A DNA stretch of 64,000 nucleotides from Patescibacteria group bacterium (GCA_042570545.1 JBHPGJ010000005.1:5529-69528), one strand, 5' to 3'; shown: positions 14,544 to 63,107, numbered from the stretch's first letter. Program-made: numbers and translations. Notes: generated by a model not told the origin, from the sequence alone.

Positions 14544-14987
14544 GTGAAAAAGTATTATTATCGTGTAGCAAAAACATTACCCTTCTTAGGTAATGTTACC
14601 GTACGACAATTCATTAAGTTTTCTATGGTGGGTGTTAGTAATACCATTATTGATTTCTCTCTATATCTTTTACTGACAAGAATTTTCCATATACATTTTT
14701 TGATCGCTAATGCATTGGCTTTTGTTATTGCTGTAACCTGGAGCTATACGGCAAATAAAATGTGGACCTTCCGTGACACTAGCAATCGGATGACAGCTCA
14801 ATTTACAAAGTTTATTATTATTAACTTAGTTGGATTAGGTTTAGCTGAGGGCATCCTAAGCGTCTTAGTGATCTATTTTGGGCTGTGGGATATATTGTCA
14901 AAGTTCATAGCCGTGTTAATTGTCGTGTTTTGGAATTTCTGGGCCAATCGCCATTGGACGTTTAAGGATAGTCAAGAAAGGTTGTAA
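14544..14987 (+). CDS. GtrA-family small membrane protein (polyprenyl-phosphate sugar translocation)
   Basis: 'FIKFSMVGVSNTIIDFSLYLLL' with four transmembrane helices, typical of GtrA (PF04138). GTG start. Confidence 0.7.
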   Translation: MKKYYYRVAKTLPFLGNVTVRQFIKFSMVGVSNTIIDFSLYLLLTRIFHIHFLIANALAFVIAVTWSYTANKMWTFRDTSNRMTAQFTKFIIINLVGLGLAEGILSVLVIYFGLWDILSKFIAVLIVVFWNFWANRHWTFKDSQERL

Positions 14988-15051
14988 AAAAACTGACAAA
15001 TCATTATAATATTTTTAAGTGAGACCTGGGTTCAAACAATCATCAGATTCG

Positions 15052-15765
15052 ATGGATTTGACCATCGTCATACCAGCTCATAACGAAGCTGGTAGAATTA
15101 GCCCAATGTTAACATCGTATATTGAACATTTTCAAAAGCGGGCCAGGATTTTGATAGTTTTAAACGGCTGTTCTGACAATACCTTGGATGTTGTCAGTAC
15201 AATTATCGATAGTATTGGCCGGCAAGGAATAGTTGATTATTTAGATATTGCTGAGCCGATTGGCAAGGCTGGAGCGGTATATGAGGGCTTTAATAAGGCC
15301 GATACTAAGTGGGTAGGGTTTGTAGATGCTGACGGCTCAACACCATCATTTGAATTTGAAAGACTCTTTCATGAAATCAACAATGCTGATGGAGTGATCG
15401 CATCTCGACGCATGCCTACCTCGCATGTGGTATATAGCAGGGTTCGCCAATTAATCAGCTGGACGTTCTCACAGGTTACAAATAGATATTTAAAATTAAA
15501 TTATCGTGATACTCAGTGTGGGGCCAAAATTTTTAAAACTAACGCTATTAATGATGTGATGGCAAAGCTGAAGGTGAAAAACAATGCTTTCGATGTGGAA
15601 CTTTTACTGGTTCTTAAAAGGGCCGGATATTTAGTTAAAGAGGAGCCAACTTTCTGGATAGAAAATAAATCATCAGCCATGTTTGGCTCTCCGTTTAAAT
15701 TCATTTCCGCCTCATGGGAAATGTTTAAAACAGTCAGGGACTTAGCAAAACAATATAAGATTTAA
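15052..15765 (+). CDS. GT2 glycosyltransferase, GtrB/DPM1-like polyprenyl-phosphate sugar synthase
   Basis: 'MDLTIVIPAHNEAGRI', 'VLNGCSDNT' and the 'FVDADGS' DxD motif. An alternative in-frame GTG start lies at 15019, with a TATAAT at 15005-15010. Confidence 0.75.
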   Translation: MDLTIVIPAHNEAGRISPMLTSYIEHFQKRARILIVLNGCSDNTLDVVSTIIDSIGRQGIVDYLDIAEPIGKAGAVYEGFNKADTKWVGFVDADGSTPSFEFERLFHEINNADGVIASRRMPTSHVVYSRVRQLISWTFSQVTNRYLKLNYRDTQCGAKIFKTNAINDVMAKLKVKNNAFDVELLLVLKRAGYLVKEEPTFWIENKSSAMFGSPFKFISASWEMFKTVRDLAKQYKI

Positions 15766-15770
15766 ATCAA

Positions 15771-16775
15771 ATGGCTAAACCAATCTTTGAGCGCAATAAC
15801 ATAGTAGTTACCGGTGGTGCCGGATTCCTCGGCTCTCATCTTTGTGATCGTCAGGTAAAAAAACATAAGGTAATTTGTATCGATAATTTTAAAACCGGCG
15901 TTGAAGAAAATATCAACCACCTATTACAGCATCCTAATTTCGAATTTGTTAGGCATGATTTAGTAGAGCCTATTAATATGGAAGTGCTGCCTGGGCTTAA
16001 AGCTTTTAAAGTATCTTTTCAAGGTGTTCAAGAGGTATATCATTTAGCTAGCCCAACATCACCAGTTGCTTATAAACGTTACCCAGTTGAAACAATATTA
16101 GCTAATACGCACGCTACTAAAAACGCCCTGGATATCGCTGTGAAATATCAAGCAAAATTTATTTTATTTTCTGCATATGCAGTTTATGGACAACCGACAG
16201 AGAACAAGCCATTACCAGAAGATTATTGGGGCTATCTAGATCATCTGGGACCAGATAGTGCTTTTGCTGAAGGCAAAAGAGCGGCCGAAAGCATAGTCTA
16301 TCATTATCGCCAAGCTTACAACATTGACGCTAAGATAATAAGATTATTTCCAGTTTATGGTCCTCGTCTACAGTTAAAAGACGGACGATTAATTCCGGAA
16401 TTAATAAGACAGGCATTATCAGAACCAGTAATTACGGTACCAGGGAAGGAAGATGATAAAGTTACAATTAGTTTTTATACCGATATTTTAGATGGCGTTG
16501 AACGAATGATGAAATCTAACGAACACGGACCGATAAACTTGGGCAGTGATGAGTTGCTTAACTTAGGTGACCTAGTAGAAATGATTAAAAAGCTTAGCGC
16601 CTCTGAAGCGAATATTCGTTATGACAACAGCGGTGAAGACTATCCATTACGTCAACCCAGCATTCATTTAGCACGACAGCGACTGGGTTGGTTTCCTGTA
16701 GTAAACTTAGAAAACGGATTAAAACAAACTATTGATTACTTAAAGGCCTCTAAGGTCGTTCATAAACTAAAATGA
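15771..16775 (+). CDS. UDP-glucuronate decarboxylase (UXS)-like extended SDR with substituted catalytic Thr and Tyr
   Basis: 'VVTGGAGFLGSHLCDR', 'IDNF.TG', 'EDYWGYLDHLGP' and 'RLFPVYGPR' closely follow UXS. Canonical 'ASTSEVYG' is 'FSAYAVYG' here, and 'YDEGKR' is 'FAEGKR'. Confidence 0.7.
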   Translation: MAKPIFERNNIVVTGGAGFLGSHLCDRQVKKHKVICIDNFKTGVEENINHLLQHPNFEFVRHDLVEPINMEVLPGLKAFKVSFQGVQEVYHLASPTSPVAYKRYPVETILANTHATKNALDIAVKYQAKFILFSAYAVYGQPTENKPLPEDYWGYLDHLGPDSAFAEGKRAAESIVYHYRQAYNIDAKIIRLFPVYGPRLQLKDGRLIPELIRQALSEPVITVPGKEDDKVTISFYTDILDGVERMMKSNEHGPINLGSDELLNLGDLVEMIKKLSASEANIRYDNSGEDYPLRQPSIHLARQRLGWFPVVNLENGLKQTIDYLKASKVVHKLK

Positions 16776-16791
16776 TTAACTAAAATATTAT

Positions 16792-17934
16792 ATGATACCA
16801 AAGTATATTTTTACTTCAGAATCAGTAACTGAAGGGCATCCCGACAAAGTATGTGATCAAATCTCTGACGCTATATTGGATAACATTATTAAACAAGATC
16901 CACACTCACATGCCGGAATAGAAACCGTGGCGACAACCGGTTTGGTTATGGTAACGGGTGAAATTAGAACCAAAGGTTATGCCGACATCGCCAGTATTGT
17001 CAGAAAAACTATTAAAGAAATTGGCTACACCGATCATACGTATGGTTTTCACTATGAGGACTGTGGAGTGATTGTAAGTGTTGATGAACAAAGCCCCGAT
17101 ATTGCTCAGGGTGTTGATAAAAAAAATCAGGGAGCTGGTGATCAGGGTCTGATGTTTGGTTATGCTACAGATGAGACTGCCGAATTGATGCCATTACCAA
17201 TAACAATAGCTCATAAATTAACAAAAAAATTAGCTCAAGTACGTAAAAAAGGAATTTTGTCATACCTCGGTCCCGATGGAAAAAGTGAAGTGGCTGTCGA
17301 GTATGTAAATGGCCGTCCTAAAAGAATTGAGACAGTAGTTATAGCCACCCAGCACAGTGATAATGTATTAACTAGCAAGATTAGACGTGATGTAATAAAT
17401 AAAGTTATTATTCCAGTCGCTAAGAAATATATTGACAAAAAGACCAAATTTTTTGTTAATGCTACTGGTCGTTTTGTCAAAGGAGGCCCACCGGCTGATG
17501 CTGGCTTGACCGGACGAAAAATAATAATCGATACTTATGGCGGACAAGGCAGTCATGGTGGTGGTGCTTTTTCTGGAAAGGATCCTTCAAAAGTCGATCG
17601 TTCAGCATCGTACATGGCTCGGTATATAGCTAAAAATATTGTGGCCGCAAAACTAGCTAAAAAATGTGAAATCCAATTAGCTTATGTTATCGGGATTGCC
17701 CAACCCATAAGCGTAATGGTTAATTCATATGGCACTGGTGTTTTTGATGATGTAAAACTGGCTAAGATTGTTCGTCGAGTATTTCCGCTTGAGCCAAGAG
17801 AAATAATAAAGCATTTGAAACTGTTACGTCCAATATATCAAGCAACGGCTTCTTATGGCCATTTCGGTCGGAATGGTGCCAAATTTACTTGGGAAAAGGT
17901 TGATAAAATATCAGCGCTTAAAAGTTATTTATAG
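16792..17934 (+). CDS. metK: S-adenosylmethionine synthetase
   Basis: '[24 protein letters not shown]', '[12 protein letters not shown]' and '[17 protein letters not shown]'. Confidence 0.92.
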
Positions 17935-17940
17935 GATGCA

Positions 17941-18864
17941 ATGAAGATTATTGTCACGGGAGGTGCTGGATTTATTGGAAGTCACATAGTTGATGCCCTG
18001 GTCTCTCGGAAGGATCAGGTATTGGTTATTGACGATCTAAGCTCCGGGCTTGAAGAAAATGTTCCATCGTCCGTCAAGTTAATAAAGATGGATATTCGTG
18101 ATCAGGGCCTAGCAGAAGTGTTCAGTAAGTTTGAACCAGAGGCTACATTTCATTGTGCAGCCCAAAAAAATGTTCGCAAGTCCGTTGATGATCCAAGCTA
18201 TGATGCGGATGTTAATATTATTGGTTCACTCAACGTTATACAGCAATGCCAGCGTTTGAACAGCAAGGTAATTTTTACCTCCACTGGCGGTGCACTATAC
18301 GGAGATGCTCAGGTATTACCGACACCAGAAACATATGATAAAAAGCCGCTGTCGCCTTATGGCATTGCTAAGTTTTCGGTTGAAGAATATCTGCGTTATT
18401 ATCAATCGGTACATGGTTTAAAGAGTATATCTCTGCGTCTGGCCAACGTCTATGGGCCACGTCAAGACCCAAAGGGCGAGGCTGGTGTTGTAGCAATATT
18501 TTTACACAAGCTTTTAACCGGACAAACGCCTATCATAAATGGTGATGGCACCCAAACAAGAGATTATGTGTATGTAGCTGACGTGGTAAAAGCAGCCATG
18601 GCGGTTCTAACGACTACTCTTAGAGGTACCTACAACGTCGGTACGGGGATTGCCACGAGCGTAAATGAACTATATGAGACTATTCGTCATCAAGGTAATT
18701 TTGCCGCCGAGGCTACACACGGCCAAGCTCTTTCCGGTGAACAAAAAACCAGCTGTCTCGATCGTCAGAAAATTACCGACGCCACTGATTGGCAACCTAC
18801 TTTTACACTAAAAACTGGGCTCGCCAAAACCATTGATTGGTTTAGGGATAAATATCATGTCTAG
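17941..18864 (+). CDS. NAD-dependent nucleotide-sugar epimerase, UDP-glucose 4-epimerase-like
   Basis: 'MKIIVTGGAGFIGSHIVDAL' Rossmann motif and the 'YGIAKFSVEEY' YxxxK. Confidence 0.75.
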   Translation: MKIIVTGGAGFIGSHIVDALVSRKDQVLVIDDLSSGLEENVPSSVKLIKMDIRDQGLAEVFSKFEPEATFHCAAQKNVRKSVDDPSYDADVNIIGSLNVIQQCQRLNSKVIFTSTGGALYGDAQVLPTPETYDKKPLSPYGIAKFSVEEYLRYYQSVHGLKSISLRLANVYGPRQDPKGEAGVVAIFLHKLLTGQTPIINGDGTQTRDYVYVADVVKAAMAVLTTTLRGTYNVGTGIATSVNELYETIRHQGNFAAEATHGQALSGEQKTSCLDRQKITDATDWQPTFTLKTGLAKTIDWFRDKYHV

Positions 18865-20173
18865 AATAAAAAAAAGTTCAAAGAAGAAATACTATCGCTC
18901 TCGCGGCACTATTGCCGTAATTGGCCTGGGCTACGTTGGTCTGCCTCTGGCGTGCATAGCTGCGGAAAAAGGTTATAAAGTAATAGGCGTTGCTAAAAAT
19001 AAAGCGAAGATTGAACTGATAAATAATGGCCAAAGCCCTATAGCCGATCGTCAATTAAAATCTTGGCTGAAAAATGTTAGTATTAATGCCTCTAGTGATT
19101 ATAACCTTGTCCAGAAAGCCAAAATAATTATAGTAAGTGTTCCAACGCCGGTAGATGAATTTTATAATCCTGATTTGCGTCCTTTAAAATCAGCTTGCGA
19201 ATCAATAAGAAAAAATCTTAAAAAAGGACAGTTAGTAGTAATTGAATCGACGGTAAATCCTGGTATTTGCGAAGAAGTTGTGAAGCCGATTTTAGAGAAA
19301 TCGAAATTAGTTGCTGGTCGTGATTTTTATCTATCACATTGTCCAGAACGGATAAACCCGGGAGATAAAAGATGGAATGTTAAAAACATTCCCCGAGTTG
19401 TTGGTGCGCTAACAAAAAAAGGTTTGAAAAAAACTATTAATTTTTATAATAATATTATTGAAGCACCACTTAAACCGATGAAAGGTCTGAAAGAAGCCGA
19501 GGCAACCAAAATAATTGAAAATTCTTTTCGTGATGTAAACATTGCTTTTGTTAATGAAATGGCAAAATCATTTGACCGACTTGGTATTGATGTATTGGAT
19601 GTAATTGAAGGAGCCAGTACTAAACCATTTGCCTTCATACCTCATTACCCTTCATGTGGAGTGGGCGGTCATTGTATACCCGTAGATCCACATTATTTGA
19701 TAAAGAGAGCAAAACGCTCAGGTTTTGACCACGAATTTCTAAAACTTGCTCGCTCGATCAATAATAGCATGCCCGAATATACAGTTGATTTATTGGCCAA
19801 TGCTCTAAATAGTATCAAACATACAGTACAAGGCGCTAGGGTGGGATTACTGGGCGTTGCCTATAAAGCTAATGTTGCTGATGTTAGGGAAAGCCCGGCC
19901 TTTGAAATTCAAAAATTATTACTTGAACTTGGAGCTCGTTTATTTATTTATGATCCATATGTGGAACAATATAATAATACCAAAAGCTTAAATGAACTAT
20001 TGCTTAAATCAGAGTGCCTAATTTTAATAACTAATCATAATTTATTCATCACTAAGTTAACTCCTAAATTATTGAAAGATTCTAATATTAGTGTCATAAT
20101 CGACGGGAAAAATGCTTTGGACAAAAAAGCAATTAAAGCAAAGGGCATAGTATATAAAGGCATTGGAAGATAA
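18857..20173 (+). CDS. UDP-N-acetyl-hexosamine 6-dehydrogenase (WecC/WbpA/TviB family)
   Basis: 'IAVIGLGYVGLPLA' NAD fold and the catalytic 'CPERINPG' region. ATG 18857 overlaps the upstream gene by 8 nt; the ORF track offers an alternative start at 18833. Confidence 0.75.
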   Translation: MSRIKKSSKKKYYRSRGTIAVIGLGYVGLPLACIAAEKGYKVIGVAKNKAKIELINNGQSPIADRQLKSWLKNVSINASSDYNLVQKAKIIIVSVPTPVDEFYNPDLRPLKSACESIRKNLKKGQLVVIESTVNPGICEEVVKPILEKSKLVAGRDFYLSHCPERINPGDKRWNVKNIPRVVGALTKKGLKKTINFYNNIIEAPLKPMKGLKEAEATKIIENSFRDVNIAFVNEMAKSFDRLGIDVLDVIEGASTKPFAFIPHYPSCGVGGHCIPVDPHYLIKRAKRSGFDHEFLKLARSINNSMPEYTVDLLANALNSIKHTVQGARVGLLGVAYKANVADVRESPAFEIQKLLLELGARLFIYDPYVEQYNNTKSLNELLLKSECLILITNHNLFITKLTPKLLKDSNISVIIDGKNALDKKAIKAKGIVYKGIGR

Positions 20174-20174
20174 A

Positions 20175-21494
20175 ATGGCTAGTATAAAGGGTAAAAATAT
20201 GAATATTACCGTTATCGGCGTTGGTTATGTCGGTTTGGTATCGGGTACTTGCTTGGCTGAATTGGGTCATATTGTGACCTGTGTTAACAGAACTCCTGAT
20301 AAAATTATCCAGTTAAAAAAAGGTAAAATTCCAATTTACGAGCCGGGCTTAGAAAAGTTGGTCAAGAGTAATATGAAAGCTGGTCGACTGAAATTTACCA
20401 CTGATTTTGATGAGGGTTTAAAAAAAGCTAAAGTAATATTTATCTGTGTTGGCACGCCGTCTTTGGCCGATGGTCGAGCCGATATTACTCAGGTTAAAAA
20501 AGCAGCTAAAGAGATCGGAAAAAGATTAAAATCATACACTGTAATTGTAAATAAAAGCACCGTACCCATAGGCACTGCAGAGGTAGTTAAAAATATTGTA
20601 AAAAGACAAACTAGAAAACAGTTTTCTATAGTTTCATGTCCCGAGTTTCTCCGGGAAGGTTTTGCGGTTAAGGACTTTTTTTATGGCGACAGAATAATTA
20701 TCGGAAGCGATAGTAGCCGGGCAACTAAACTGATGTTGAATTTGTTTGCCAAATTAAAAATGGCAAAAATAGTAACCTCAATCCCCAGTGCCGAGATGAT
20801 AAAATATGCTTCTAATGCCTTCCTGGCGACAAAAATCTCGTTTATTAATGAAATTGCTAATATTAGTGAGCTCGTAAATGCCGATGTTAATGAGGTGGCC
20901 AAGGGCATGGGTCTTGATAAAAGAATAGGTGATAAATTTCTAAAAGCTGGAATTGGCTATGGCGGAAGTTGCTTCCCCAAGGATGTAAGGGCGCTCGAAA
21001 ATATCGCCCTTAACACCGGTTATGATTTTAAATTATTAAAGGCGGTGATTGATGTTAATAATTTTCAGCGTCAAGTGCCAGTAAAGAAATTATTGGCTCA
21101 TTTAAAAACATTTAACGGTCTAGGCAAAACCATTACAGTGCTGGGCTTAGCTTTCAAAAACAATACTGATGATGTCAGAGAATCATCAGCTATAAATATT
21201 ATTCAAAATTTGCTCTCCCGCGGGGCTAATGTCAATGCTTACGATCCCATTGCCGAGAAAAACGCTTCAAGAATTTTAGGTGAAGAGGTAAAGTACTTTA
21301 ATGATCCCTACGAAGCGGCTCGAGATGCCCAAGCACTGATGATAGCTACCGAATGGGAAGAATTTCGTCTTTTAGATTGGAAAAAAATTAAAAGATTAAT
21401 GAAGAAGCCGATATTAATAGATGGTAAGAATTTATTAGACAAAGATAAAATGAATAAAATTGGTTTTATATATGAAGCCATAGGCCGCCCATGA
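20175..21494 (+). CDS. ugd: UDP-glucose 6-dehydrogenase
   Basis: 'MNITVIGVGYVGLVSGTCLAELGH', 'IYEPGL' and the catalytic 'GYGGSCFPKD'. ATG 20175 directly follows the upstream stop; an alternative TTG lies at 20163. Confidence 0.85.
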   Translation: MASIKGKNMNITVIGVGYVGLVSGTCLAELGHIVTCVNRTPDKIIQLKKGKIPIYEPGLEKLVKSNMKAGRLKFTTDFDEGLKKAKVIFICVGTPSLADGRADITQVKKAAKEIGKRLKSYTVIVNKSTVPIGTAEVVKNIVKRQTRKQFSIVSCPEFLREGFAVKDFFYGDRIIIGSDSSRATKLMLNLFAKLKMAKIVTSIPSAEMIKYASNAFLATKISFINEIANISELVNADVNEVAKGMGLDKRIGDKFLKAGIGYGGSCFPKDVRALENIALNTGYDFKLLKAVIDVNNFQRQVPVKKLLAHLKTFNGLGKTITVLGLAFKNNTDDVRESSAINIIQNLLSRGANVNAYDPIAEKNASRILGEEVKYFNDPYEAARDAQALMIATEWEEFRLLDWKKIKRLMKKPILIDGKNLLDKDKMNKIGFIYEAIGRP

Positions 21495-25382: not shown

Positions 25383-25384
25383 TT

Positions 25385-54711: not shown

Positions 54712-56279
54712 ATAGAAATACATTAATCGTCTGGACTGTAGCAGGAGTGTTTTTTATATTGACTAGCTGGCCGGGAATATATCATGCCGGAGGTTATACT
54801 TCACCTGACGAAGAAATTAATTACATTGCTGCCGAATCATTTAGCGAGAATGGTAATTTTCTATTAGGTAACGCTTTAGCCGAAGACGATTTGGGTACCG
54901 TTAAACCCAGAAACGCCCAAATAGTAAATAATTATATTGTGCCCTTAAGTTTTTTAGGCTTCCCATTAATAATGGGAATCACGGCTAAGATATTTGGCAG
55001 CTGGATTATCTCATTAATAACGCCGCTTATAGTATCATTTGGCTTGGTGGCATTTTATTTTTTAGTGAAAAGTTATTGGGGCGAATTTATTGGCTTAGTA
55101 GGCTTTATATTGTTAACGATATTTCCCGGTTTATTATTTTTTACCTATAAAGGCCTTTGGCACAATGCCGTGTTTATCAGTTTACTGATAATTTCATTTT
55201 TTATGGCTGTGATTTACAAAAAGAAAGAAAGTTGGTGGGTAATAATTGTAGCAGGCGGTTTTTTTGGTCTAGCCATAACCATTAGAACAAGTGAATTGGT
55301 TTGGTTGATCCCCCTGATGATATTATGGCTTACTATTGCTTTGAGGAATATTAACTTAAAGAAAATTTTTACGTTTATTATTATTACCATCGTCTTCACC
55401 TTACCAATACTGTATTTTAATAGCCAAACTTTTGGTGGACCATTATCATTTGGCTACACGGCCGCTTTAGAAAGAGAGGGTAGCATTGTGTCAGAGACCA
55501 GTACATTCACCAGAGCGGTCAATCTATTAATACCATCGGATAATAAACTGTCAAATTATATCGACAATGGCCAAAGGTACATTGTTGAATTTTCACCACT
55601 TTACTTTTTGTTAATAATGTTAGGCCTCTTGAGTTTAATAGTAAAAAAAATAAATCAACAATTAAAAATATGGCTTATAATTATGTTCTTAGTTTCCGTC
55701 TGGTTGTTTTGGTATTATGCTGGAACAATATACTACGGGGGCACCACCACGGCTGATGGCCCAATTATTGGTTCATCTTATATCAGATACTTTTTGCCAA
55801 TGACGGTATTGGTAATGCCCATCGCCGCCAGTGGCATTAAATGGATTATTGATCTATATCGCGGCAAGACCAGGCAACTTTTATTAGCAGCAATTATTAC
55901 TATATTATTAATATCTTCAGTTCATATATTATTGTTTGATTCACAAAGTGGTCTGATAAAATATTTTAACGAAGATATTCCCCAAATTAACGAAGCTAGT
56001 GAATCGGTAATTAATTTAACCGAAACCGATGCCATAATAATTGCCGGCGCCAAAGATAAATTATTTTTTCCAGAACGAAGTGTTATTGGGTATAATGATA
56101 TATCCGATAAGCACCTGAAAACTATCAGTAAACTAATTGGTGAATATGATCTATATTACAATGATATTGCTGAGCGCGATCTTACAACATTGAGCGAACT
56201 TGCGGCTGATAATAATTATTCTTTAAAATCGGTTGGAAATATTGGACAAGATATATTATATAAATTTGTAAAAAACTAA
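54708..56279 (+). CDS. Polytopic membrane protein, possible GT-C-fold glycosyltransferase
   Basis: About 12 transmembrane helices. The first loop carries 'SPDEEINYIAAESF', an acidic DE motif like that in the first loop of GT-C enzymes. GTG start overlaps the upstream stop. Confidence 0.45.
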   Translation: MNRNTLIVWTVAGVFFILTSWPGIYHAGGYTSPDEEINYIAAESFSENGNFLLGNALAEDDLGTVKPRNAQIVNNYIVPLSFLGFPLIMGITAKIFGSWIISLITPLIVSFGLVAFYFLVKSYWGEFIGLVGFILLTIFPGLLFFTYKGLWHNAVFISLLIISFFMAVIYKKKESWWVIIVAGGFFGLAITIRTSELVWLIPLMILWLTIALRNINLKKIFTFIIITIVFTLPILYFNSQTFGGPLSFGYTAALEREGSIVSETSTFTRAVNLLIPSDNKLSNYIDNGQRYIVEFSPLYFLLIMLGLLSLIVKKINQQLKIWLIIMFLVSVWLFWYYAGTIYYGGTTTADGPIIGSSYIRYFLPMTVLVMPIAASGIKWIIDLYRGKTRQLLLAAIITILLISSVHILLFDSQSGLIKYFNEDIPQINEASESVINLTETDAIIIAGAKDKLFFPERSVIGYNDISDKHLKTISKLIGEYDLYYNDIAERDLTTLSELAADNNYSLKSVGNIGQDILYKFVKN

Positions 56280-56292
56280 ATTAGGTAACAAT

Positions 56293-57753
56293 TTGAATAA
56301 GTCATTATATTTAACTTTAAAAACCCTAATATGGCTTACGCCAATAGTAGTATTAGTTTGGATAAGTAATATTATTATAATCCCTGAAGGTGAAGTATCA
56401 TTTACTTACGACCAATCAGACGAAGAAAGTGTGATTACTGGTTTTAATAAGCGTGAAAAATATTCCGCTGAATATTTAAAGCAAAACAATACAGTCAGAG
56501 ACATAAATGCTGATCAAGCAAATTTTTTTATTAATCAATTAGTACCCTTTACTGATATTGAGATTTCTCTTGATATAACCAGAATTTCTAGCCGAATATA
56601 TTTAACTTCCGTAGGGAAGCCAGGTTTGGGATTAATAAGACAGCCATTATACTTACCATTACTTGACGACTATAATAACTGGACGATTGTTGAAGATGAT
56701 AGTTTGTCGTTGTGGCAGAGAGAAAATAAATATAATAATATAGCTGATTTCCTAAGTTCGCCACCACCAGCCGACACAATAAGTGTTGAGAGTGTCAGGA
56801 TTAAAGAACCTAATTTTGAAAATATTGATATAAAATTGGAAGATAAAATATTTAATCTTCCTTTAAGGGGTTCCCACAGTTTTTACGTAAATGTACCAAG
56901 TAATAAATTGTTTTTAGAAATAAGTAAGACCGATTTAAATAAATTAACTGGACCTGACCGGTTAACAGTTGATATTTATGATAAGAATAATAAAATTGTT
57001 CATAGTCAGATCATTGGTGATGACGGTGACGAAACGCCGAGTGAAATATTAGGCAAGACGCAAATTAATGTGATTGAGTTGACTAATTTGCCTGATCGGA
57101 TTTATAGAATGGAAATAGCTGCCAATGACGATGTGATAATTGACTCGATAAAAACTAATAATGAATTAGTAATCTATCGACAGTTAAAATTATTTGATAA
57201 AGAAGATGAAAATAATATAGTTGAGGCCAGAGGTTTTCATCTAGTAATTATTAATGATGGTCAGAATGATGCTCGAATTTCTCTGGATGATAAAATCGTT
57301 TCAGTTAAACCTGATGAAAGTAAGATAATAAATATTGATGAAATTGTGACTATCGAAAATCTTAATAAGGTCCCCGTCAGGTATATAACTGACGGTGGTT
57401 TTATAGATCGGGACTTTAATTACTTTGATTATCAATATGGTTATGGCTTGTTGCCTAAAGAAATAGCTGATCAAATTGGAGTTGATTATGTATTAGCCAA
57501 TTATCGTCAACCAGAAAAAGTAAATGAATTAACACGGACCAAAGCCTCATACCAACTGAATGATTTATTCTACACAGATGCCGGTTATAATTTTATTATT
57601 AATATAGAACAAGATAATTTACTACCCATGGCCCTCGGCCAAGTAACATATACCACCACTCGACCGCAAATTTCTTCAATAAACTTACCAGAGCTGGCTA
57701 AAAACATGTTTAAATTTTTAAAAAGTGTCTGGCGCATACAAGTAGCAAATTAA
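56293..57753 (+). CDS. Hypothetical membrane-anchored extracytoplasmic protein
   Basis: TTG start, one N-terminal transmembrane helix and a large hydrophilic domain. Confidence 0.45.
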   Translation: MNKSLYLTLKTLIWLTPIVVLVWISNIIIIPEGEVSFTYDQSDEESVITGFNKREKYSAEYLKQNNTVRDINADQANFFINQLVPFTDIEISLDITRISSRIYLTSVGKPGLGLIRQPLYLPLLDDYNNWTIVEDDSLSLWQRENKYNNIADFLSSPPPADTISVESVRIKEPNFENIDIKLEDKIFNLPLRGSHSFYVNVPSNKLFLEISKTDLNKLTGPDRLTVDIYDKNNKIVHSQIIGDDGDETPSEILGKTQINVIELTNLPDRIYRMEIAANDDVIIDSIKTNNELVIYRQLKLFDKEDENNIVEARGFHLVIINDGQNDARISLDDKIVSVKPDESKIINIDEIVTIENLNKVPVRYITDGGFIDRDFNYFDYQYGYGLLPKEIADQIGVDYVLANYRQPEKVNELTRTKASYQLNDLFYTDAGYNFIINIEQDNLLPMALGQVTYTTTRPQISSINLPELAKNMFKFLKSVWRIQVAN

Positions 57754-57762
57754 AAAGTCATT

Positions 57763-57771
57763 TGATATAAT
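57763..57771 (+). promoter_or_regulatory. Extended -10 (TGaTATAAT) 7 nt upstream of the rmlC-like ATG; leaderless-type geometry
   Basis: ttTGaTATAATattatttATG. Confidence 0.3.
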
Positions 57772-57778
57772 ATTATTT

Positions 57779-58255
57779 ATGATTAGTGGAGTAATAATAA
57801 AGAAACTTAAAGTTCATCAAGACGTAATTGATAAAGATGAAGTTGTAAAGCAACCGGGGATCCTAATGGAAATCATCAGGAGTGATGAGGGACTTTTAAA
57901 AAAATTTGGTCAGAGTACGATGACCATAGCTTATAAAGATACTATTAAGGCGTTTCACTGGCATAAGAAGCAGGACGATCTGTGGTTTGTCGCTACTGGC
58001 AAAGCATTAATTGTGCTGCATGATTTACGCGAGAACTCAGAGACCAAAGGGGAGACAATGACCATTGAGGCTGGAGCAGGTAAATATAAATTAATAGTGA
58101 TACCCAATGGAGTCGCCCATGGTTATAAAGTACTGTCTGAGGAACCAGTGATGCTTTTCTACTATACTACCGAAACATACGATCCAAACAATCCTGACGA
58201 AGAACGAATTACGATGAATGACAATAGAATAAACTTTAATTGGTCAGAATATTAA
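57779..58255 (+). CDS. rmlC: dTDP-4-dehydrorhamnose 3,5-epimerase-like cupin
   Basis: 'FHWHKKQDDLWFVATGKALIVLHDLR', 'IPNGVAHGYKVLSEEPVMLFYYTTETYDP' and '..INFNW'. Confidence 0.7.
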   Translation: MISGVIIKKLKVHQDVIDKDEVVKQPGILMEIIRSDEGLLKKFGQSTMTIAYKDTIKAFHWHKKQDDLWFVATGKALIVLHDLRENSETKGETMTIEAGAGKYKLIVIPNGVAHGYKVLSEEPVMLFYYTTETYDPNNPDEERITMNDNRINFNWSEY

Positions 58256-59212
58256 ATGAAAGAGCCAAACATCATCATCTATGGCTCAATGGCTCATGAC
58301 CGGATACTGAACTTTCCTGGACGTTTTGCTGATCATATTCTTAAGGATAAGATCCATGTCCTATCGGTAAGCTTTGGTATCAGTGAATTCAATGATAATT
58401 ATGGTGGTACCGCAGGTAATATCGCCTATAATCTTTCCCTGCTTAAACAACAAGCCAATATCATCGCCGCTATTGGTAAAGATGACGACAAGTATCGATT
58501 ATGGTTAAAATTTAATAATCTTAGCCAGGCCGGAATTGAGGGAGTGCCTAACGAGCCGACAGCGCTTGTTTATATATTTACTGACCGAGATGATAACCAA
58601 ATTGCTGGTTTTTATCCTGGGGCGATGAAAAAAACAGTGAAAGTAAGGCTAAGTGAAATGATGAAGAAAAATTCATTTAATTATTTATTATTAGCACCAG
58701 GTAATAAGAACGATATAATCAGACTAGGCAGTGAAGCCCAAAAGTTAGAAATTCCTTATATGTTTGATCCCGGACAATCGTTACCACTGTTTAATAAATC
58801 AGAACTCAGAAAATTAATAGACGGAGCCGATATTCTTATTTCTAATGATTATGAATTAAGTATGATCGAAAAAATCACTGGTTGGAAGGCCGGTACTATT
58901 GAGGAAAAAGTACATATATTAATAACTACCTTAGGTCCCAAGGGGTCAGTCGTCAGACACGGCAAAAAATGTTATCGTATATCGGCTGGTAAGCCTAAGA
59001 ACGAATCAGATCCAACCGGAGCCGGAGATGCATTTCGCGCGGGTTTTCTTACCGGGTATTTGAACGGTAAAGATTTAAAAGATTCAGCCCGTCTTGGCTC
59101 AACTGTCAGTCTTTACACAGTTGAGAAATATGGCACCCAAACGCATCAATTCAACTTAAAACAAATTAAAAATAGATATTATAAAAATTATAAGAGTAAA
59201 ATAAGTTTATGA
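58256..59212 (+). CDS. PfkB-family kinase, adenosine-kinase/ribokinase-like
   Basis: 'GGTAGNIAYNLSLL' and the anion-hole 'DPTGAGDAFRAGFLTGYL'. It overlaps ahcY by 4 nt. Confidence 0.7.
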   Translation: MKEPNIIIYGSMAHDRILNFPGRFADHILKDKIHVLSVSFGISEFNDNYGGTAGNIAYNLSLLKQQANIIAAIGKDDDKYRLWLKFNNLSQAGIEGVPNEPTALVYIFTDRDDNQIAGFYPGAMKKTVKVRLSEMMKKNSFNYLLLAPGNKNDIIRLGSEAQKLEIPYMFDPGQSLPLFNKSELRKLIDGADILISNDYELSMIEKITGWKAGTIEEKVHILITTLGPKGSVVRHGKKCYRISAGKPKNESDPTGAGDAFRAGFLTGYLNGKDLKDSARLGSTVSLYTVEKYGTQTHQFNLKQIKNRYYKNYKSKISL

Positions 59213-60465
59213 AATACGATATTAAGGATATTAAACTGGCAAAAAAAGGTTATAAAAGGATCATGTGGGCAAATAATAACATGCCCGTGTTGTCTGAGAT
59301 CAGGAAAAGATTTAATAAGACCAAACCATTAAAAGGAGTGAAACTAGCGGCCTGTCTTCACGTCACTACTGAAACTGCTAATCTGATGCGGACATTAAAA
59401 GATGGCGGAGCCAGTGTGGTATTATGTGCTTCAAATCCACTTTCGACACAGGATGATGTAGCAGCATCTTTAGTTAAAGATTTTGATATTCCCACCTTTT
59501 CAATAAGAGCAGAAAACCGGAAGGTGTACTATGAGCACCTTAAGGCTGCTCTCGACACAAAGCCGCACATCACGATGGATGACGGCGCTGATCTTTTCAC
59601 CGAATTAGTGAAAAATAGACAAGGGCAACTAAAAGATGTCTGGGGCTCGACCGAAGAAACCACTACTGGTGTTATCAGGCTTAAAAGTATGGAAAAACAG
59701 GGTGTGTTGCCAGTGCCGGTAATCGCGGTGAATGACTCACAGACCAAGCACCTTTTTGATAATCGTTACGGCACCGGACAATCAACGATCGATGGCATAC
59801 TTCGAGCGACGAATCTTCTGATCGCCGGCAGCACTTTTGTGATCTGTGGATATGGCTGGTGTGGTCGGGGGGTATCTATGCGTGCTAAAGGCATGGGCGC
59901 TGAAGTGGTAATTTGTGAAGTCGATCCCGTTAGGGCATTAGAGGCGCGGATGGATGGATTTCGGGTAATGCCGCTAACAAAGGCCGCGACAATCGGTAAT
60001 GTATTTGTGACAGTCACTGGTGATGCCAAAGTTATAACAAAAGAACATTTTGAAAAGATGAAAAACGGTGCTATCATAGCGAACGCCGGTCACTTTGACG
60101 TGGAAATAGATATCAAGGCACTAAAGAAAATGTCCAATAAATACTATGAAGCACGTAAAGAAGTTATGGCTTACGAAATATCAAGGAAAAAGACAGTTTA
60201 TGTGTTGGGCAGTGGTAGATTGATTAATCTGGCCGCGGCTGAAGGACACCCCGCCATGGTGATGGATATGAGTTTTGCCAATCAAGCACTAGCCGCTGAA
60301 CATATTAAAAATAATCATAAACAACTTGATGATATAGTTTACACGCTGCCTAATGAAATAGATGAATTTATAGCTACACTTAAGTTAAAAACTATGGGCA
60401 TAAAAACGGATAAATTGACCGACGAACAGGAGAAATATCTTAGCTCCTGGAAAATTGGGACCTAA
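59209..60465 (+). CDS. ahcY: Adenosylhomocysteinase, short form
   Basis: 'CLHVTTETANLMRTLKDGGA', 'DDGADL', and the NAD-binding 'VICGYGWCGRGVSMRAKGMGA'. Confidence 0.9.
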   Translation: MKYDIKDIKLAKKGYKRIMWANNNMPVLSEIRKRFNKTKPLKGVKLAACLHVTTETANLMRTLKDGGASVVLCASNPLSTQDDVAASLVKDFDIPTFSIRAENRKVYYEHLKAALDTKPHITMDDGADLFTELVKNRQGQLKDVWGSTEETTTGVIRLKSMEKQGVLPVPVIAVNDSQTKHLFDNRYGTGQSTIDGILRATNLLIAGSTFVICGYGWCGRGVSMRAKGMGAEVVICEVDPVRALEARMDGFRVMPLTKAATIGNVFVTVTGDAKVITKEHFEKMKNGAIIANAGHFDVEIDIKALKKMSNKYYEARKEVMAYEISRKKTVYVLGSGRLINLAAAEGHPAMVMDMSFANQALAAEHIKNNHKQLDDIVYTLPNEIDEFIATLKLKTMGIKTDKLTDEQEKYLSSWKIGT

Positions 60466-60468
60466 ACT

Positions 60469-61512
60469 ATGAAAATACTTGTTACCGGCGGTGCAGGTTT
60501 TATAGGCTCTAATTTTATCCATTACTGGATGCGAGAACATCCAGCTGATTCTATTATTAATTTGGACAAATTAACATACGCTGGAAATTTAGAGAATCTG
60601 GAGAGCATCGATAAAAATCCGAATTACGAATTTCACAAATTTGATATCACCTGCCGTAGGAATGGTGCCTATAATGATATGGATTTTCAAAAGCTGGTTG
60701 AGTTAGTTAAAAAGTGCGACGTCGTAGTACATTATGCAGCTGAGTCACACGTCGATCGTTCTATAGCTAGCGCCCAGGAATTTGTAATGACCAATGTCGT
60801 TGGCACCCAGCTGTTGCTCGAGGCAGCACTTGCAGCGGGAAAGAAACGCTTTCATCACGTTTCTACCGATGAAGTATTTGGTCAGCTGGCACTTGAAGAC
60901 AATACTAAATTTACTGAAACGACGCGCTATAATCCGAGAAATCCATATTCAGCATCAAAGGCGTCATCGGATCATTTTGTTCGGGCGTATTGTCATACTC
61001 ACGGTCTGCCAATTACAATAACAAACACGGAAAATAATTATGGGCCATATCAATATCCCGAGAAGCTTTTACCCTTGGCCATAACCAATCTATTAGAAGG
61101 TAAAAAGGTTCCTATCTATGGTGACGGTAAGTATATTCGTGATTGGCTATATGTTGATGATCATTGCCGGGCAATTGACCTGATATTAGAAAAGGGAAAG
61201 ATCGGCGAGACTTACTGTATTGGTGGACTGACCGAGGATGTTAACAATCTTGAATTAATACAAAAAGTTCTTGAGGTAATGAATAAGGATGATAATTCAC
61301 TAGAATTTGTTAAAGATAGACCTGGACATGACAGGCGTTATGCTGTTGATTGGACTAAGGCCAAAAATGAGCTGGGCTATGTACCAAAGCACAGTCTAGA
61401 TGAATATTTAGAAAAAACAGTTCAGTGGTATGAAGACAACGAGGCTTGGTGGAAAAGAATTAAAAGCGGAGAATATCTTGAATACTATAAAAAACAATAC
61501 GTCGAAAGGTAG
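60469..61512 (+). CDS. rmlB: dTDP-glucose 4,6-dehydratase
   Basis: 'MKILVTGGAGFIGSNFI', 'DKLTYAGN', 'YSASKASSDHFVRAY' and 'NNYGPYQYPEKLLPL'. Confidence 0.9.
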   Translation: MKILVTGGAGFIGSNFIHYWMREHPADSIINLDKLTYAGNLENLESIDKNPNYEFHKFDITCRRNGAYNDMDFQKLVELVKKCDVVVHYAAESHVDRSIASAQEFVMTNVVGTQLLLEAALAAGKKRFHHVSTDEVFGQLALEDNTKFTETTRYNPRNPYSASKASSDHFVRAYCHTHGLPITITNTENNYGPYQYPEKLLPLAITNLLEGKKVPIYGDGKYIRDWLYVDDHCRAIDLILEKGKIGETYCIGGLTEDVNNLELIQKVLEVMNKDDNSLEFVKDRPGHDRRYAVDWTKAKNELGYVPKHSLDEYLEKTVQWYEDNEAWWKRIKSGEYLEYYKKQYVER

Positions 61513-61518
61513 ACGATA

Positions 61519-62355
61519 ATGAAAGTATTGATATTGGGTGCCAAAGGAATGTTGGGGCACGCTTTAGTAGAAGTATATAAGGAACATGATGTAATAGCGT
61601 GGGATCAGGAGGAGCTTGATATTGCCAACAAAAGTAAAGTACGTGAAATAATACCAGAAACTAAGGCTGACATAATAATAAACGCAGCTGCCTTTACTGA
61701 TGTAGACGCCTGTGAAGAAAAAAGGGCTACAGCCTATAGAGTCAATGGCGAAGCGGTGGGCTATCTTGCACTGGCAGCTGATGAAATGAACATACCGATA
61801 GTACATATTAGCACCGACTACGTTTTTAGCGGTAAAAAGAAAGAGGGTTATAGCGAAGAAGATATACCTGAACCAATTAATTCTTACGGCCGATCAAAAC
61901 TACGAGGTGAACAGCATCTAAAAGTAAATGCCAAACAATATTATCTTATACGCACGGCTTGGCTTTTTGGACCAGATGGTAATAATTTCGTTAAGACGAT
62001 AGCAAAACTATGCAAAGAAAAGAACCAGATTGAAGTGGTAAACGACCAGTTTGGCAATCCCACCTATTCTAAAGACTTAGCAGCAAATATTTACAGGTTA
62101 GTATATGAAAAGCCAGATTTTGGTATTTATCACTTTACCAATAGTGGAGTGGTGAGTTGGTATGACTTTGCTAATGAAATTGTGAAGTTAATAAATCCTC
62201 AATGCAAGGTGTTACCAGTTGATTCTGATAAAAATAAAAAACCGGCTAAAAGACCAGCTTATTCAATTCTACTAAATAACAAGTTTTATAAGATGCGTAA
62301 TTGGCAAGATGCTTTGAGAAATTATATCTATAAAATTGACGAAGATAATGAATAA
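61519..62355 (+). CDS. rmlD: dTDP-4-dehydrorhamnose reductase
   Basis: 'MKVLILGAKGMLG', 'HISTDYVFSG', 'YGRSKLRGE' and 'IRTAWLFG'. Confidence 0.85.
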   Translation: MKVLILGAKGMLGHALVEVYKEHDVIAWDQEELDIANKSKVREIIPETKADIIINAAAFTDVDACEEKRATAYRVNGEAVGYLALAADEMNIPIVHISTDYVFSGKKKEGYSEEDIPEPINSYGRSKLRGEQHLKVNAKQYYLIRTAWLFGPDGNNFVKTIAKLCKEKNQIEVVNDQFGNPTYSKDLAANIYRLVYEKPDFGIYHFTNSGVVSWYDFANEIVKLINPQCKVLPVDSDKNKKPAKRPAYSILLNNKFYKMRNWQDALRNYIYKIDEDNE

Positions 62356-62372
62356 AGAGTAGTATATTTATT

Positions 62373-63107
62373 ATGAAAGGTATTATTTTAGCCGGAGGAG
62401 CGGGGACCAGATTGCACCCCATAACAAAAGTTACCAGCAAGCAATTACTGCCGATATATGATCGGCCAATGATATATTACCCCCTGCAAACATTACTAAA
62501 TGCCGGTATTAAGGAAATACTAATTATTGTTGCCCCAGAAAATGCTGGTGACTATTTAAAATTACTTGGATCAGGCAAAGAATTTAAAGCAAAATTTGCT
62601 TATGAAATTCAAGATAAGCCCGAAGGCTTAGCCCAAGCATTTATTATTGGTGAGACATTTATTGGTGATGATAATGTAACCATGATACTTGGCGACAATT
62701 TATTTTTAGCAGATACTGGACCGATAACACAAGCAATTCAAAATTTTAAATCTGGTGGCATCATAATCACGCGTGAAGTGAATGATCCCGAGCGCTTTGG
62801 CGTAGCCAAGTTTGATGATAAAGGTGAATTGGTAGAAATTATAGAGAAACCTAAAGATCCGCCAAGTAATCAGGCGGTTACCGGTCTATACGTGTATGAT
62901 AATAGGATTATCAAATTTGCCCAACAATTGAAGCCATCGGCTCGGGGAGAGTTAGAAATTACTGATCTCAACAATATTTATCTAAAAAATAAAGAACTGC
63001 AAGCTATTGAGTATAAAGGGAAATGGCTCGACACCGGCACATTTGACACTTTGCTTGATGCGGCCAATCACGTAGCCGAATTGAATAGGGGATCTAAGTT
63101 ATTTTAA
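62373..63107 (+). CDS. rmlA: Glucose-1-phosphate thymidylyltransferase, short form
   Basis: 'MKGIILAGGAGTRLHPITKVTSKQLLPIYDRPMIYYPL' and 'GLAQAFIIGETFIGDD'. Confidence 0.85.
   Translation: MKGIILAGGAGTRLHPITKVTSKQLLPIYDRPMIYYPLQTLLNAGIKEILIIVAPENAGDYLKLLGSGKEFKAKFAYEIQDKPEGLAQAFIIGETFIGDDNVTMILGDNLFLADTGPITQAIQNFKSGGIIITREVNDPERFGVAKFDDKGELVEIIEKPKDPPSNQAVTGLYVYDNRIIKFAQQLKPSARGELEITDLNNIYLKNKELQAIEYKGKWLDTGTFDTLLDAANHVAELNRGSKLF

Follow-up and report, generated by a model that had tools for sequence, protein, structure and literature searches.

Multi-component transmembrane glycosylation has been described in several forms. The three-component systems consist of a GtrB-like GT-A enzyme, GtrA and a GT-C glycosyltransferase, and the four-component systems such as GacIJKL consist of a GT-A enzyme, a small membrane activator, a Wzx flippase and a GT-C glycosyltransferase (PMC9574508). 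In the 'complex' system of Lactococcus, C55-P-GlcNAc is made by WpsA/B and extended by cytoplasmic glycosyltransferases, the C55-P-oligosaccharide is flipped by the Wzx protein WpsG, and it is then polymerised by the GT-C protein WpsI and attached by WpsJ, with neither an initiating phosphoglycosyltransferase (PGT) nor Wzy taking part (PMC9574508). Herein we describe a locus at positions 14544-63107 of a 64,000-nucleotide stretch (hereafter the window) from a Patescibacteria group bacterium (GCA_042570545.1, JBHPGJ010000005.1:5529-69528), for which these Gram-positive cell-wall polysaccharide systems (GacIJKL; Lactococcus WpsA/B-WpsG-WpsI/J) provide the closest described mechanism. With moderate confidence, we regard the locus as a composite surface-glycan island that uses multi-component transmembrane glycosylation and not the classical Wzx/Wzy/PGT route; as far as gene content tells, its product is best read as a sulfated, O-methylated, uronamide- and 6-deoxyhexose-containing glycan, which would be flipped by Wzx and transferred by GT-C.

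Flippases, GT-C-type proteins and the search for a polymerase

The open reading frame (ORF) map gives 43 tightly packed genes in five strand blocks, namely 14544-26485 (+), 26443-34626 (-), 34718-39389 (+), 39395-54202 (-) and 54328-63107 (+), which reproduces the layout reported in a first-pass annotation of the same DNA. Adjacent genes mostly overlap by 4 bp or lie less than 40 bp apart, and sizeable gaps are confined to the divergent promoter regions 34626-34718 and 54202-54328 and a 120-bp gap at 52173-52293. The window takes up 64 kb of a contig of 71,233 bp in an incomplete metagenome-assembled genome (MAG), and ten window proteins that were looked up are identical to singleton NCBI proteins (MFC1662943-MFC1662967) of this Patescibacteria group bacterium; every window ORF of at least 100 aa was scanned with Pfam and the locus ORFs with NCBIfam also, and transmembrane (TM) helices were called by a hydropathy scan. 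Together with a fold match, these scans bear out the view that the locus centres on polyprenyl-phosphate-sugar synthases, flippases and GT-C proteins.

Both of the Wzx flippases previously noticed are confirmed by Polysacc_synt matches. The first is a Wzx/MOP-family protein of 485 aa at 28140..29597 (-) (Polysacc_synt_3 103, Polysacc_synt 95 and MurJ 59 bits), the second a protein of 429 aa at 37325..38614 (+) (Polysacc_synt 49.6 bits), and each of the two genes is translationally coupled to a GT-C-type gene: an 867-aa GT-C gene ends 3 bp 5' of Wzx429, and Wzx485 overlaps the gene of a 566-aa polytopic protein by 4 bp.

In all, four polytopic proteins are GT-C candidates, and they are mutually dissimilar; as phmmer finds no match among them, the possibility of recent paralogs is rejected. 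Four or five such proteins had been counted before. The four stand, the 566-aa one as a weak candidate, and a further protein of 486 aa at 56293..57753 (+) has one TM helix and is rejected as a GT-C, being an N-terminally anchored extracytoplasmic protein. The 867-aa protein, PMT_2/GT39-like and located at 34718..37321 (+), reaches 30.4 bits with PMT_2, above the Pfam cut-off, and carries the NCBI name 'GT39 family'; its family profile matches the glycosylphosphatidylinositol mannosyltransferase PIG-M in the PDB, and E295 is invariant in the family within the loop motif FxTxDEPxW. The 980-aa protein at 31684..34626 (-) is a GT-C-fold enzyme with C-terminal beta-sandwich ectodomains like carbohydrate-binding modules (CBM). 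Its AlphaFold2 model (pLDDT 85.5, from an 80-sequence alignment) resembles, in Foldseek, mycobacterial AftD (E 5e-7) and human STT3A (E 1e-5), and its C-terminal beta-sandwiches resemble BcsB and CBM modules. The 149 homologs of this protein are mostly unnamed, some bearing DUF6311, PMT_2, PTPS_related or the name 'GT39'; the family takes in members from Micrarchaeota and Halobacteriota, and its D50, an Asp in the first loop, is near-invariant. Comparison of the 867-aa family profile with the 980-aa family by hhalign gives a probability of 95.7%. As for the 523-aa protein (12 TM helices; 54708..56279 (+)), it scores 25.4 bits with PMT_2 and 46.8 bits with the LA_3751/3752 family, and hhalign against the 867-aa family gives 94.4% with the DE of its TSPDEE loop aligned. 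The weak candidate of 566 aa (nine or more TM helices; 26443..28143 (-)) scores 25.1 bits with PMT_2 against a cut-off of 26.1 and 68.6% in hhalign to the 867-aa family, and has no sequence match in the PDB. More generally, sequence searches of the PDB gave nothing useful for the four polytopic proteins, the 486-aa protein and two of the sulfotransferases described below.

The 523-aa gene is preceded, with a 4-bp overlap, by that of a membrane protein of 127 aa with 3-4 TM helices at 54328..54711 (+). This small protein has no family match even at E<=1 and no DUF2304/GacJ signature, and it is possibly an analogue of GtrA or GacJ. Relatives of the 486-aa protein directly adjoin GT-C genes in three other loci (L004, 3629-5998; L012, 19557-20855; L016, 17882-19345), which suggests a conserved GT-C partner or substrate.

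GtrA itself is found as claimed, as a small membrane protein of 147 aa with 3-4 TM helices at 14544..14987 (+) (Pfam GtrA_DPMS_TM, PF04138, 105.2 bits against a cut-off of 26.1). The three GtrB/ArnC-like GT2 enzymes assigned beside it are indeed three GT2 enzymes, two of which have two C-terminal TM helices, and the third is soluble. The two are a polyprenyl-P-hexose synthase type (AglJ/DPMS-like, with AglJ as the best NCBIfam match) at 21491..22453 (+) and an ArnC/PgfS-like polyprenyl-P-sugar synthase (best matches ArnC/PgfS) at 52293..53249 (-); the helix pair is that of GtrB, ArnC and DPMS, and the activities are predicted ones. The soluble one, a DPM1/PpgS/AglJ-like protein of 248 aa at 15019..15765 (+), has no TM helix, matches Pfam Glycos_transf_2 and, weakly, the NCBIfam models PgfS, AglJ and PpgS, and pairs with GtrA. 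Five GT4 enzymes are recognised by Pfam, at 24312..25382 (+) (Glycos_transf_1, 114.7 bits), 25325..26485 (+), 40919..42052 (-), 45521..46627 (-) and 47538..48647 (-), hereafter GT4a to GT4e, among which GT4d serves below as marker of the conserved core. A sixth GT4 had been counted and is rejected here, the 369-aa ORF at 29575 (-) being an HprK-like P-loop protein by NCBIfam. Five GT4 enzymes together with two Wzx argue for cytoplasmic assembly and flipping of oligosaccharides, beyond single sugars.

As to the polymerase and the initiating enzyme, the first-pass annotation had recognised no Wzy, Wzz or initiating PGT, and our family scans agree for the window as well as for about 37 related loci described below. 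Among the window ORFs of at least 100 aa, Pfam and NCBIfam give no match for Wzy/O-antigen ligase, polysaccharide co-polymerase (PCP)/Wzz, LCP, ABC exporter or PGT, the last including PF00953 and PF02397 of the WecA/WbaP type; the polytopic proteins show no signal of Wzy_C, EpsG or O-antigen polymerase/ligase even at E<=1, and no ABC transporter protein, thus no Wzm/Wzt-type exporter, is encoded in the locus. A sub-threshold Wzz match at 8884-9738 falls in a single-TM protein outside the locus, is probably spurious and was rejected. In the related loci, 17 of the 38 polytopic proteins match PMT_2, four match YfhO (also GT-C) and four are Wzx, with no Wzy, ligase or PGT among the 38, and for 142 further ORFs the 25 families that occur most often include no PGT.

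These absences bear on the classical route, by which Wzx and Wzy would act on undecaprenyl pyrophosphate, with a PGT (and perhaps Wzy, PCP and LCP ligase) encoded elsewhere, or with one of the divergent polytopic proteins, for instance that of 566 aa, being a disguised Wzy, so that the GT-C proteins would add just side-chain sugars. Such a route is made attractive by the two Wzx and five GT4, which are typical of repeat-unit pathways, by the marginal GT-C likeness of the 566-aa protein, by the partial view of an incomplete genome, and by the rhamnose-containing cell-wall polysaccharide systems, whose initiator TagO/GacO lies outside the locus (PMC9574508). However, no Wzy_C, EpsG, O-antigen polymerase, PCP or PGT is matched either here or in the proteins surveyed from the related loci, the Wzx genes are coupled to GT-C-type genes, and the pairing of the 867-aa GT-C with Wzx is kept across lineages. 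We thus consider the classical route unlikely, though it deserves serious attention.

Compared with it, transmembrane glycosylation through GT-C proteins remains our preference. The first-pass annotation had proposed stepwise extracytoplasmic glycosylation rather than polymerisation; GT-C-mediated extracytoplasmic transfer is indeed the best reading, while the product may be either stepwise or polymerised, as the GT-C protein WpsI is the polymerase in the Wzy-less Lactococcus system (PMC9574508). As none of the four GT-C proteins is related to another, its further suggestion that there is more than one acceptor or glycan is plausible.

Sulfation, methylation and amidation genes

The earlier inventory is incomplete, as 15 genes, a third of the locus, had been overlooked: three sulfotransferases, CysD, CysNC and a CysQ-like protein, three methyltransferases, MetK, AhcY and a nucleoside kinase, AsnB, and a pair of HprK-like kinases. 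Apart from this pair, the overlooked genes, 13 of the 15, bear on product chemistry, pointing to a glycan that would be sulfated, methylated and amidated. Since the modification enzymes have no TM segments, the modification must be cytoplasmic, on nucleotide- or lipid-linked intermediates.

The three sulfotransferases are of 243 aa (Sulfotransfer_3; 38658..39389 (+)), 219 aa (Sulfotransfer_2; 40253..40912 (-); NCBI name 'sulfotransferase family 2') and 291 aa (Sulfotransfer_3; 46629..47504 (-)). Their Pfam scores of 30.1, 33.2 and 30.7 bits are above or near the cut-offs, and loops like the 5'-phosphosulfate-binding motif are present in them (RSGT in the 243-aa protein, RSGS in the 291-aa protein, and RKVAGES). 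For most sulfotransferases and GT-C proteins of the locus, the NCBI label is 'hypothetical'. The sulfuryl donor, 3'-phosphoadenosine-5'-phosphosulfate (PAPS), would be supplied by CysD, the small subunit of sulfate adenylyltransferase (51268..52173 (-); TIGR02039 443 bits, cut-off 397), and by a CysN/CysC fusion of its large subunit with adenosine-5'-phosphosulfate kinase (49450..51267 (-); NF004035 805.5 bits against 715), and the by-product 3'-phosphoadenosine-5'-phosphate would be removed by a CysQ-like 3'(2'),5'-bisphosphate nucleotidase (48644..49450 (-); Inositol_P 179 bits), for which CysQ is the best NCBIfam match at 158 bits, below the cut-off. The genes of CysD, CysNC, the CysQ-like protein and GT4e abut or overlap, the last two by 4 bp, which ties sulfation to glycan assembly. 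Moreover, the window has no CysH, CysI or CysJ, so that PAPS is most likely the sulfuryl donor and not an intermediate of assimilation; with the translational coupling to a GT4 gene added, an assimilatory role of the Cys genes is unlikely.

It might still be asked whether sulfation is directed to the glycan at all, or whether the sulfotransferases and the PAPS genes serve another target, such as a sulfolipid or the tyrosine residues of some secreted protein or peptide, and are merely co-located. In fact the sole sequence matches of the 291-aa sulfotransferase in the PDB are tyrosylprotein sulfotransferases (TPST), weak ones at E about 5e-4, and Sulfotransfer_3 includes peptide sulfotransferases, for example RaxST. 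However, the sulfotransferase genes lie in between those of GT4 enzymes and methyltransferases within a single operon-like array, there is the overlap of the CysQ-like gene with GT4e, the 243-aa sulfotransferase adjoins GT-C and Wzx in three lineages, no precursor peptide gene is evident, and the same Pfam families mark the sulfated-polysaccharide clusters of cyanobacteria (PMC8205485). A non-glycan target is accordingly very improbable in our estimation, and glycan sulfation is retained.

For methylation, three S-adenosylmethionine (SAM) methyltransferases are encoded, of 272 aa (39395..40213 (-); Methyltransf_11 79.9 bits), 254 aa (42093..42857 (-)) and 268 aa (42886..43692 (-)), the latter two also assigned by Pfam. 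SAM synthetase MetK (16792..17934 (+); TIGR01034 559.9 bits, cut-off 309), S-adenosylhomocysteine hydrolase AhcY (59209..60465 (+); TIGR00936 626 bits, cut-off 498) and a PfkB nucleoside kinase, perhaps for adenosine (58256..59212 (+); PfkB 134 bits, best match nucleoside kinase), are found in the outer blocks and would make SAM and clear its by-products. For amidation, an AsnB-type glutamine amidotransferase at 43711..45516 (-) (Asn_synthase 330 bits; TIGR01536 491 bits) is a candidate uronic-acid amidase.

The two HprK-like genes are located between Wzx485 and the 980-aa GT-C, all four forming a single run of overlapping genes. The encoded proteins, a P-loop kinase-like protein of 369 aa at 29575..30684 (-) with weak NCBIfam and Pfam matches and an HprK-related kinase A-like P-loop protein of 333 aa at 30686..31687 (-) (TIGR04352 53 bits, sub-threshold), are paralogs for which no homologs were found in the related loci, and they could phosphorylate the glycan or a protein.

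Related loci and the proposed pathway

Relatives of the 867-aa GT-C form a small family: of 1.84 billion cluster representatives, 18 match at E<1e-30. A word-indexed homolog search gave three proteins (two beyond that of the window) even with a profile, and a scan of genome contigs gave nothing with the single sequence and four loci with an alignment as query. The two other members lie on metagenome contigs (up to 181 kb in those read) with the same core as the window, in which GT-C is followed by Wzx and then a sulfotransferase, facing methyltransferases, AsnB, GT4 and a CysQ-like gene. The adjacency of GT-C867 and Wzx429 is kept in L001, L004, L007 and L012, and in L001 and L004 orthologs of the 243-aa sulfotransferase stand beside the pair, which makes three lineages with the window. 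More relatives came from the contig scan, in MAGs that bear the labels Nanoarchaeia, Ainarchaeum, Gammaproteobacteria and Patescibacteria. For example, a 4.4-kb contig of a Nanoarchaeia MAG (L007, JAQVLH010000115.1) carries the pair at 546-4340 with 35% identity for GT-C and 45% for the adjacent Wzx, and the Ainarchaeum MAG is L008. The archaeal labels rest on MAG binning, and for these two either gene sharing between the candidate phyla radiation (CPR) and DPANN or a binning error is possible.

With GT4d as marker, a broader picture is obtained, since it has 174 metagenome relatives, and co-occurrence was counted in the 37 loci of at least 12 kb among them. GT4e is present in 29 of the 37, the ArnC-like GT2 in 27, AsnB in 19, a methyltransferase of the 254-aa type in 11, Wzx in 10 and CysNC in 5. 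The ArnC-like GT2 orthologs (43-52% identity) head the 27 loci where they occur, and the recurring order is the ArnC-like GT2, a translationally coupled polytopic protein (GT-C), GT4e, an optional AsnB, GT4d, a methyltransferase and AsnB, with Wzx on the opposite strand relative to this core. The GT-C that follows the GT2 in these loci is no ortholog of the 523-aa or the 566-aa protein, as hhalign gives about 18% for both (18.6% for the latter). Among the 142 further ORFs, SAM methyltransferases account for 24, whereas PAPS genes stand beside the core in just 5 of the 37 loci, which makes sulfation an accessory feature of this lineage and a few others; therefore the core is a widespread, methylation-rich module.

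Two side observations concern the supply of methyl and sulfuryl groups in the related loci. Serine hydroxymethyltransferase makes up six of the 142 further ORFs beside the core (in L011-L090), which fits a one-carbon or methyl supply for the many methyltransferases. In L015 (Ga0180007_10001874), L028 and L085, the CysNC query matches a protein of 568-600 aa beside a CysQ-like gene, and no CysD homolog was found in these three loci; a different fusion, of the Sat type, may supply their PAPS.

From the gene content, the folds and family assignments, the coupling and the conservation observed, a scheme may be drawn, in which we propose how the lipid carrier is primed, how the steps follow one another, what the modification enzymes act on and that the acceptor lies outside the membrane. 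First, at the inner face of the membrane, the GT4 enzymes would build units rich in uronic acid and 6-deoxyhexose on polyprenyl phosphate, most likely primed by the ArnC-like GT2 by analogy with WpsA/B, which prime with C55-P-GlcNAc in Lactococcus. The units would then be amidated by AsnB, O-methylated by the methyltransferases and O-sulfated by the sulfotransferases in the cytoplasm, and the modified units would be flipped by Wzx. Outside, the adjacent GT-C would transfer and possibly polymerise them onto an extracytoplasmic acceptor. Finally, the pair of GtrA and the soluble GT2 and the pair of the 127-aa and 523-aa proteins would attach single sugars as decorations on the outer side of the membrane, as in Gtr, GacIJKL or Csd systems.

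Several points tell against this scheme and should be considered together with the rarity of PAPS genes mentioned above. The AlphaFold2 model of the 867-aa GT-C, made from a 3-sequence alignment, has a pLDDT of 41 and is unusable, and the 566-aa protein, being marginally GT-C-like, might instead be a polymerase that went unrecognised. That a monophosphate carrier is primed is deduced just from finding no PGT in the window, 64 kb out of the 71 kb of its contig, and an enzyme of the WecA/TagO/WbaP type could sit elsewhere in the genome. Moreover, the coupling of the ArnC-like GT2 with GT-C in the related loci fits a single-sugar decorating pair equally with a pair of primer and transferase. Lastly, the likeness to TPST weakly suggests that the 291-aa sulfotransferase may have a non-glycan substrate.

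Donor sugars, neighbouring genes and comparison with known systems

More than ten nucleotide-sugar enzymes had been claimed, and with Pfam and NCBIfam we count 11. They encode, by family assignment, routes to predicted donors of four kinds, i.e. dTDP-6-deoxyhexose, GDP-6-deoxyhexose, UDP-uronic acids and a UDP-HexNAc-uronic acid. As to the claimed rmlABCD set for dTDP-L-rhamnose, RmlB (dTDP-glucose 4,6-dehydratase, 60469..61512 (+), TIGR01181 455 bits against 365) and RmlD (dTDP-4-dehydrorhamnose reductase, 61519..62355 (+), TIGR01214 296 bits against 224) are above the equivalog cut-offs, and the short-form glucose-1-phosphate thymidylyltransferase at 62373..63107 (+) is RmlA-like, TIGR01207 being its best match at 311 bits, just below the cut-off of 361. 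The supposed rmlC does not hold at this level: it is a short RmlC-family cupin of 158 aa at 57779..58255 (+), an epimerase or isomerase that passes the Pfam family threshold (dTDP_sugar_isom 72 bits) and reaches just 61 bits with TIGR01221 against an equivalog cut-off of 155.75. The pair of gmd and an rmd-like reductase is supported, by GDP-mannose 4,6-dehydratase Gmd at 22440..23420 (+) (TIGR01472 450 bits, cut-off 415) and an overlapping short-chain dehydrogenase/reductase (SDR) of 300 aa at 23417..24319 (+), a candidate Rmd-like GDP-4-keto-6-deoxymannose reductase with 31% identity to Gmd. So are the two dehydrogenases previously assigned, namely the Ugd/TuaD-like UDP-glucose 6-dehydrogenase at 20163..21494 (+) (TuaD model 565 bits, TIGR03026 467 bits) and the WecC/TviB-like NDP-sugar 6-dehydrogenase at 18833..20173 (+) (TIGR03026 409 bits), whose best specific NCBIfam matches are UDP-ManNAc dehydrogenase and TviB. 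The remaining three are SDRs: a protein of 334 aa at 15771..16775 (+), NDP-sugar dehydratase/decarboxylase-like (Pfam Epimerase/GDP_Man_Dehyd), with NCBIfam matches to RmlB, UXS and ArnA that are all sub-threshold; a GalE/TviC-like 4-epimerase of 307 aa at 17941..18864 (+), by Pfam and NCBIfam; and a GalE/TviC-like epimerase of 318 aa at 53246..54202 (-), overlapping the GT2 at 52293 by 4 bp. The GC content is 0.30-0.34 in the central part with GT-C, Wzx, sulfotransferase, methyltransferase and GT4 genes (30000-47000) against 0.38-0.40 in the flanking nucleotide-sugar and cofactor genes, which may be due to horizontal acquisition or to the composition bias of membrane proteins. No tRNA gene or Rfam family is found in the window.

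Just upstream and on the same strand, a protein of 284 aa (8884-9738 (+)) has a Pro-rich N-terminus, one TM helix, bacterial TSP3 calcium-binding repeats and about 100 residues of Asn/Thr/Ser low complexity with dozens of N-x-S/T sequons; it is a candidate for a glycosylated acceptor protein. The next gene encodes a protein of 208 aa (9757-10383 (+)) that matches no family and whose two TM helices enclose a loop of about 110 aa, in a topology like that of PCP/WpsH, and after it comes a 7-TM DUF5656 protein (10387-11148 (+)). Next come a PDZ-domain membrane protein (11164-12378) and an S8 subtilase fused to FG-GAP repeats (12375-14537 (+)) that ends 7 bp before GtrA; these two surface-protein-processing genes may be co-transcribed with the glycan block.

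The acceptor leads to a further possibility, that of archaeal Agl-like protein glycosylation, in which a polyprenyl-monophosphate glycan would be moved by a GT-C acting as oligosaccharyl- or mannosyltransferase to a protein at the cell surface, be it of the S-layer, a pilin or the TSP3 protein rich in Asn and Thr, and not to a wall polysaccharide or lipid. The haloarchaeal N-glycans carry sulfated and methylated uronic acids. In the locus, the models AglJ, AglM, AglF and Agl23 come out as best matches, the 980-aa family has the archaeal members mentioned and its model matches STT3A, and the sequon-rich anchored protein and the S8 protease with FG-GAP repeats lie directly upstream. In addition, relatives of the 867-aa GT-C, once with Wzx, occur in MAGs labelled Nanoarchaeia and Ainarchaeum, which have no peptidoglycan-bound rhamnan, and an SLH-domain protein lies beside the related locus L004. 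However, every Agl match is far below its cut-off, no STT3/AglB/PglB or PglL-type oligosaccharyltransferase family is matched, the archaeal labels come from binning, with a 4.4-kb contig in the case of L007, and the acceptor is not inferable from sequence. An Agl-like system is therefore rather improbable to us; it concerns the acceptor and is compatible with the transmembrane mechanism that we favour.

CPR bacteria, including Patescibacteria, have very small genomes and a host-attached life, and their surface chemistry is almost undescribed. That about 48 kb is given to one glycan island with its own PAPS and SAM economy implies a heavily modified, polyanionic glycan of importance to the organism. 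Sulfated bacterial glycans are rare and have been regarded as essentially cyanobacterial (PMC8205485); later literature adds a few marine bacteria (Vibrio and Cobetia clusters), and a description of glycan sulfation in CPR was not found in the literature searched. The mechanistic kind is thus already known, as are sulfotransferase-bearing polysaccharide clusters in cyanobacteria, Vibrio and Cobetia. New, as far as the literature was searched, is a Wzx/GT-C island without Wzy and PGT that combines in-cluster PAPS and SAM genes, three sulfotransferases, three methyltransferases and an amidotransferase in a CPR host, with a core common to many uncultured lineages. The recurrence of the core in dozens of such lineages suggests that multi-component transmembrane glycosylation extends far wider than the ovococci where it was defined. 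As a tentative and still doubtful extension, ultra-small episymbiotic prokaryotes, i.e. Patescibacteria (and DPANN archaea, if the MAG labels hold), might share a pathway independent of PGT and Wzy, in which polyprenyl monophosphate is primed by an ArnC-like GT2 and lengthened by GT4 enzymes, after which export and attachment of the product fall to a conserved Wzx/GT-C pair, the product being here a sulfated, O-methylated and amidated coat like a glycosaminoglycan, for which the PAPS and SAM supply would be kept in a reduced genome, possibly for host attachment. The testable predictions are the primer chemistry, the sulfate, methyl and amide content, and the acceptor.

Among the known systems, ArnC/ArnT resembles the locus through the GT2 at 52293, whose best NCBIfam match is ArnC with 181.7 bits, far below the equivalog cut-off, and differs in that the locus has no ArnA/B/D/E/F genes or aminotransferase; CPR bacteria are, as a rule, described as having neither lipid A nor an outer membrane. 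The pair of the soluble GT2 and GtrA mirrors the mycobacterial PpgS/Rv3632, and the 980-aa model matches another mycobacterial protein, AftD, a GT-C with CBM ectodomains. With the haloarchaeal Agl pathway (AglJ, AglM, AglP, AglR, AglS, Agl23), DPMS-like GT2 priming on a monophosphate lipid, a Wzx-like flippase and a PMT_2-like GT-C would be shared, all model matches being sub-threshold, whereas the locus has no AglB/STT3 homolog. The Synechocystis xss cluster for synechan and the sulfated capsular polysaccharide clusters of Vibrio and Cobetia likewise place PF13469/PF03567 sulfotransferases among glycosyltransferases and Wzx, and these are the Pfam families of the cyanobacterial sulfated exopolysaccharide clusters (PMC8205485); however, the xss cluster has Wzy, PCP, OPX and a priming glycosyltransferase and is without GT-C or in-cluster PAPS and SAM genes.

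The closest likeness is with the multi-component systems. With GacI/GacJ/GacK/GacL of Streptococcus pyogenes and GtrA-GtrB-GT-C of Shigella and Lactococcus, the locus shares GtrA, a GtrB/ArnC-type GT2, Wzx, GT-C and the tight pairing of a GT2 or a small membrane protein with GT-C, though those systems add one sugar, while here there are five GT4 and modification enzymes, four unrelated GT-C and two Wzx. Unlike GacJ/WpsB, the 127-aa protein bears no DUF2304/GacJ signature, and GtrA adjoins the soluble GT2 instead. The GT-C components are without sequence conservation across such systems (PMC9574508), and likewise within this locus. The cwps locus of Lactococcus lactis (WpsA/B, WpsC-F, WpsG, WpsI, WpsJ) shares a GT2 synthase, possibly with a small membrane partner, extending glycosyltransferases, Wzx, GT-C and a module free of PGT and Wzy. 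The likeness is one of architecture and not of sequence orthology to Wps proteins, with the priming by GT2 being inferred here, and our locus is without rhamnan ABC-transporter or LCP genes; to this common architecture it adds modules of sulfation, methylation and amidation, in a CPR host.

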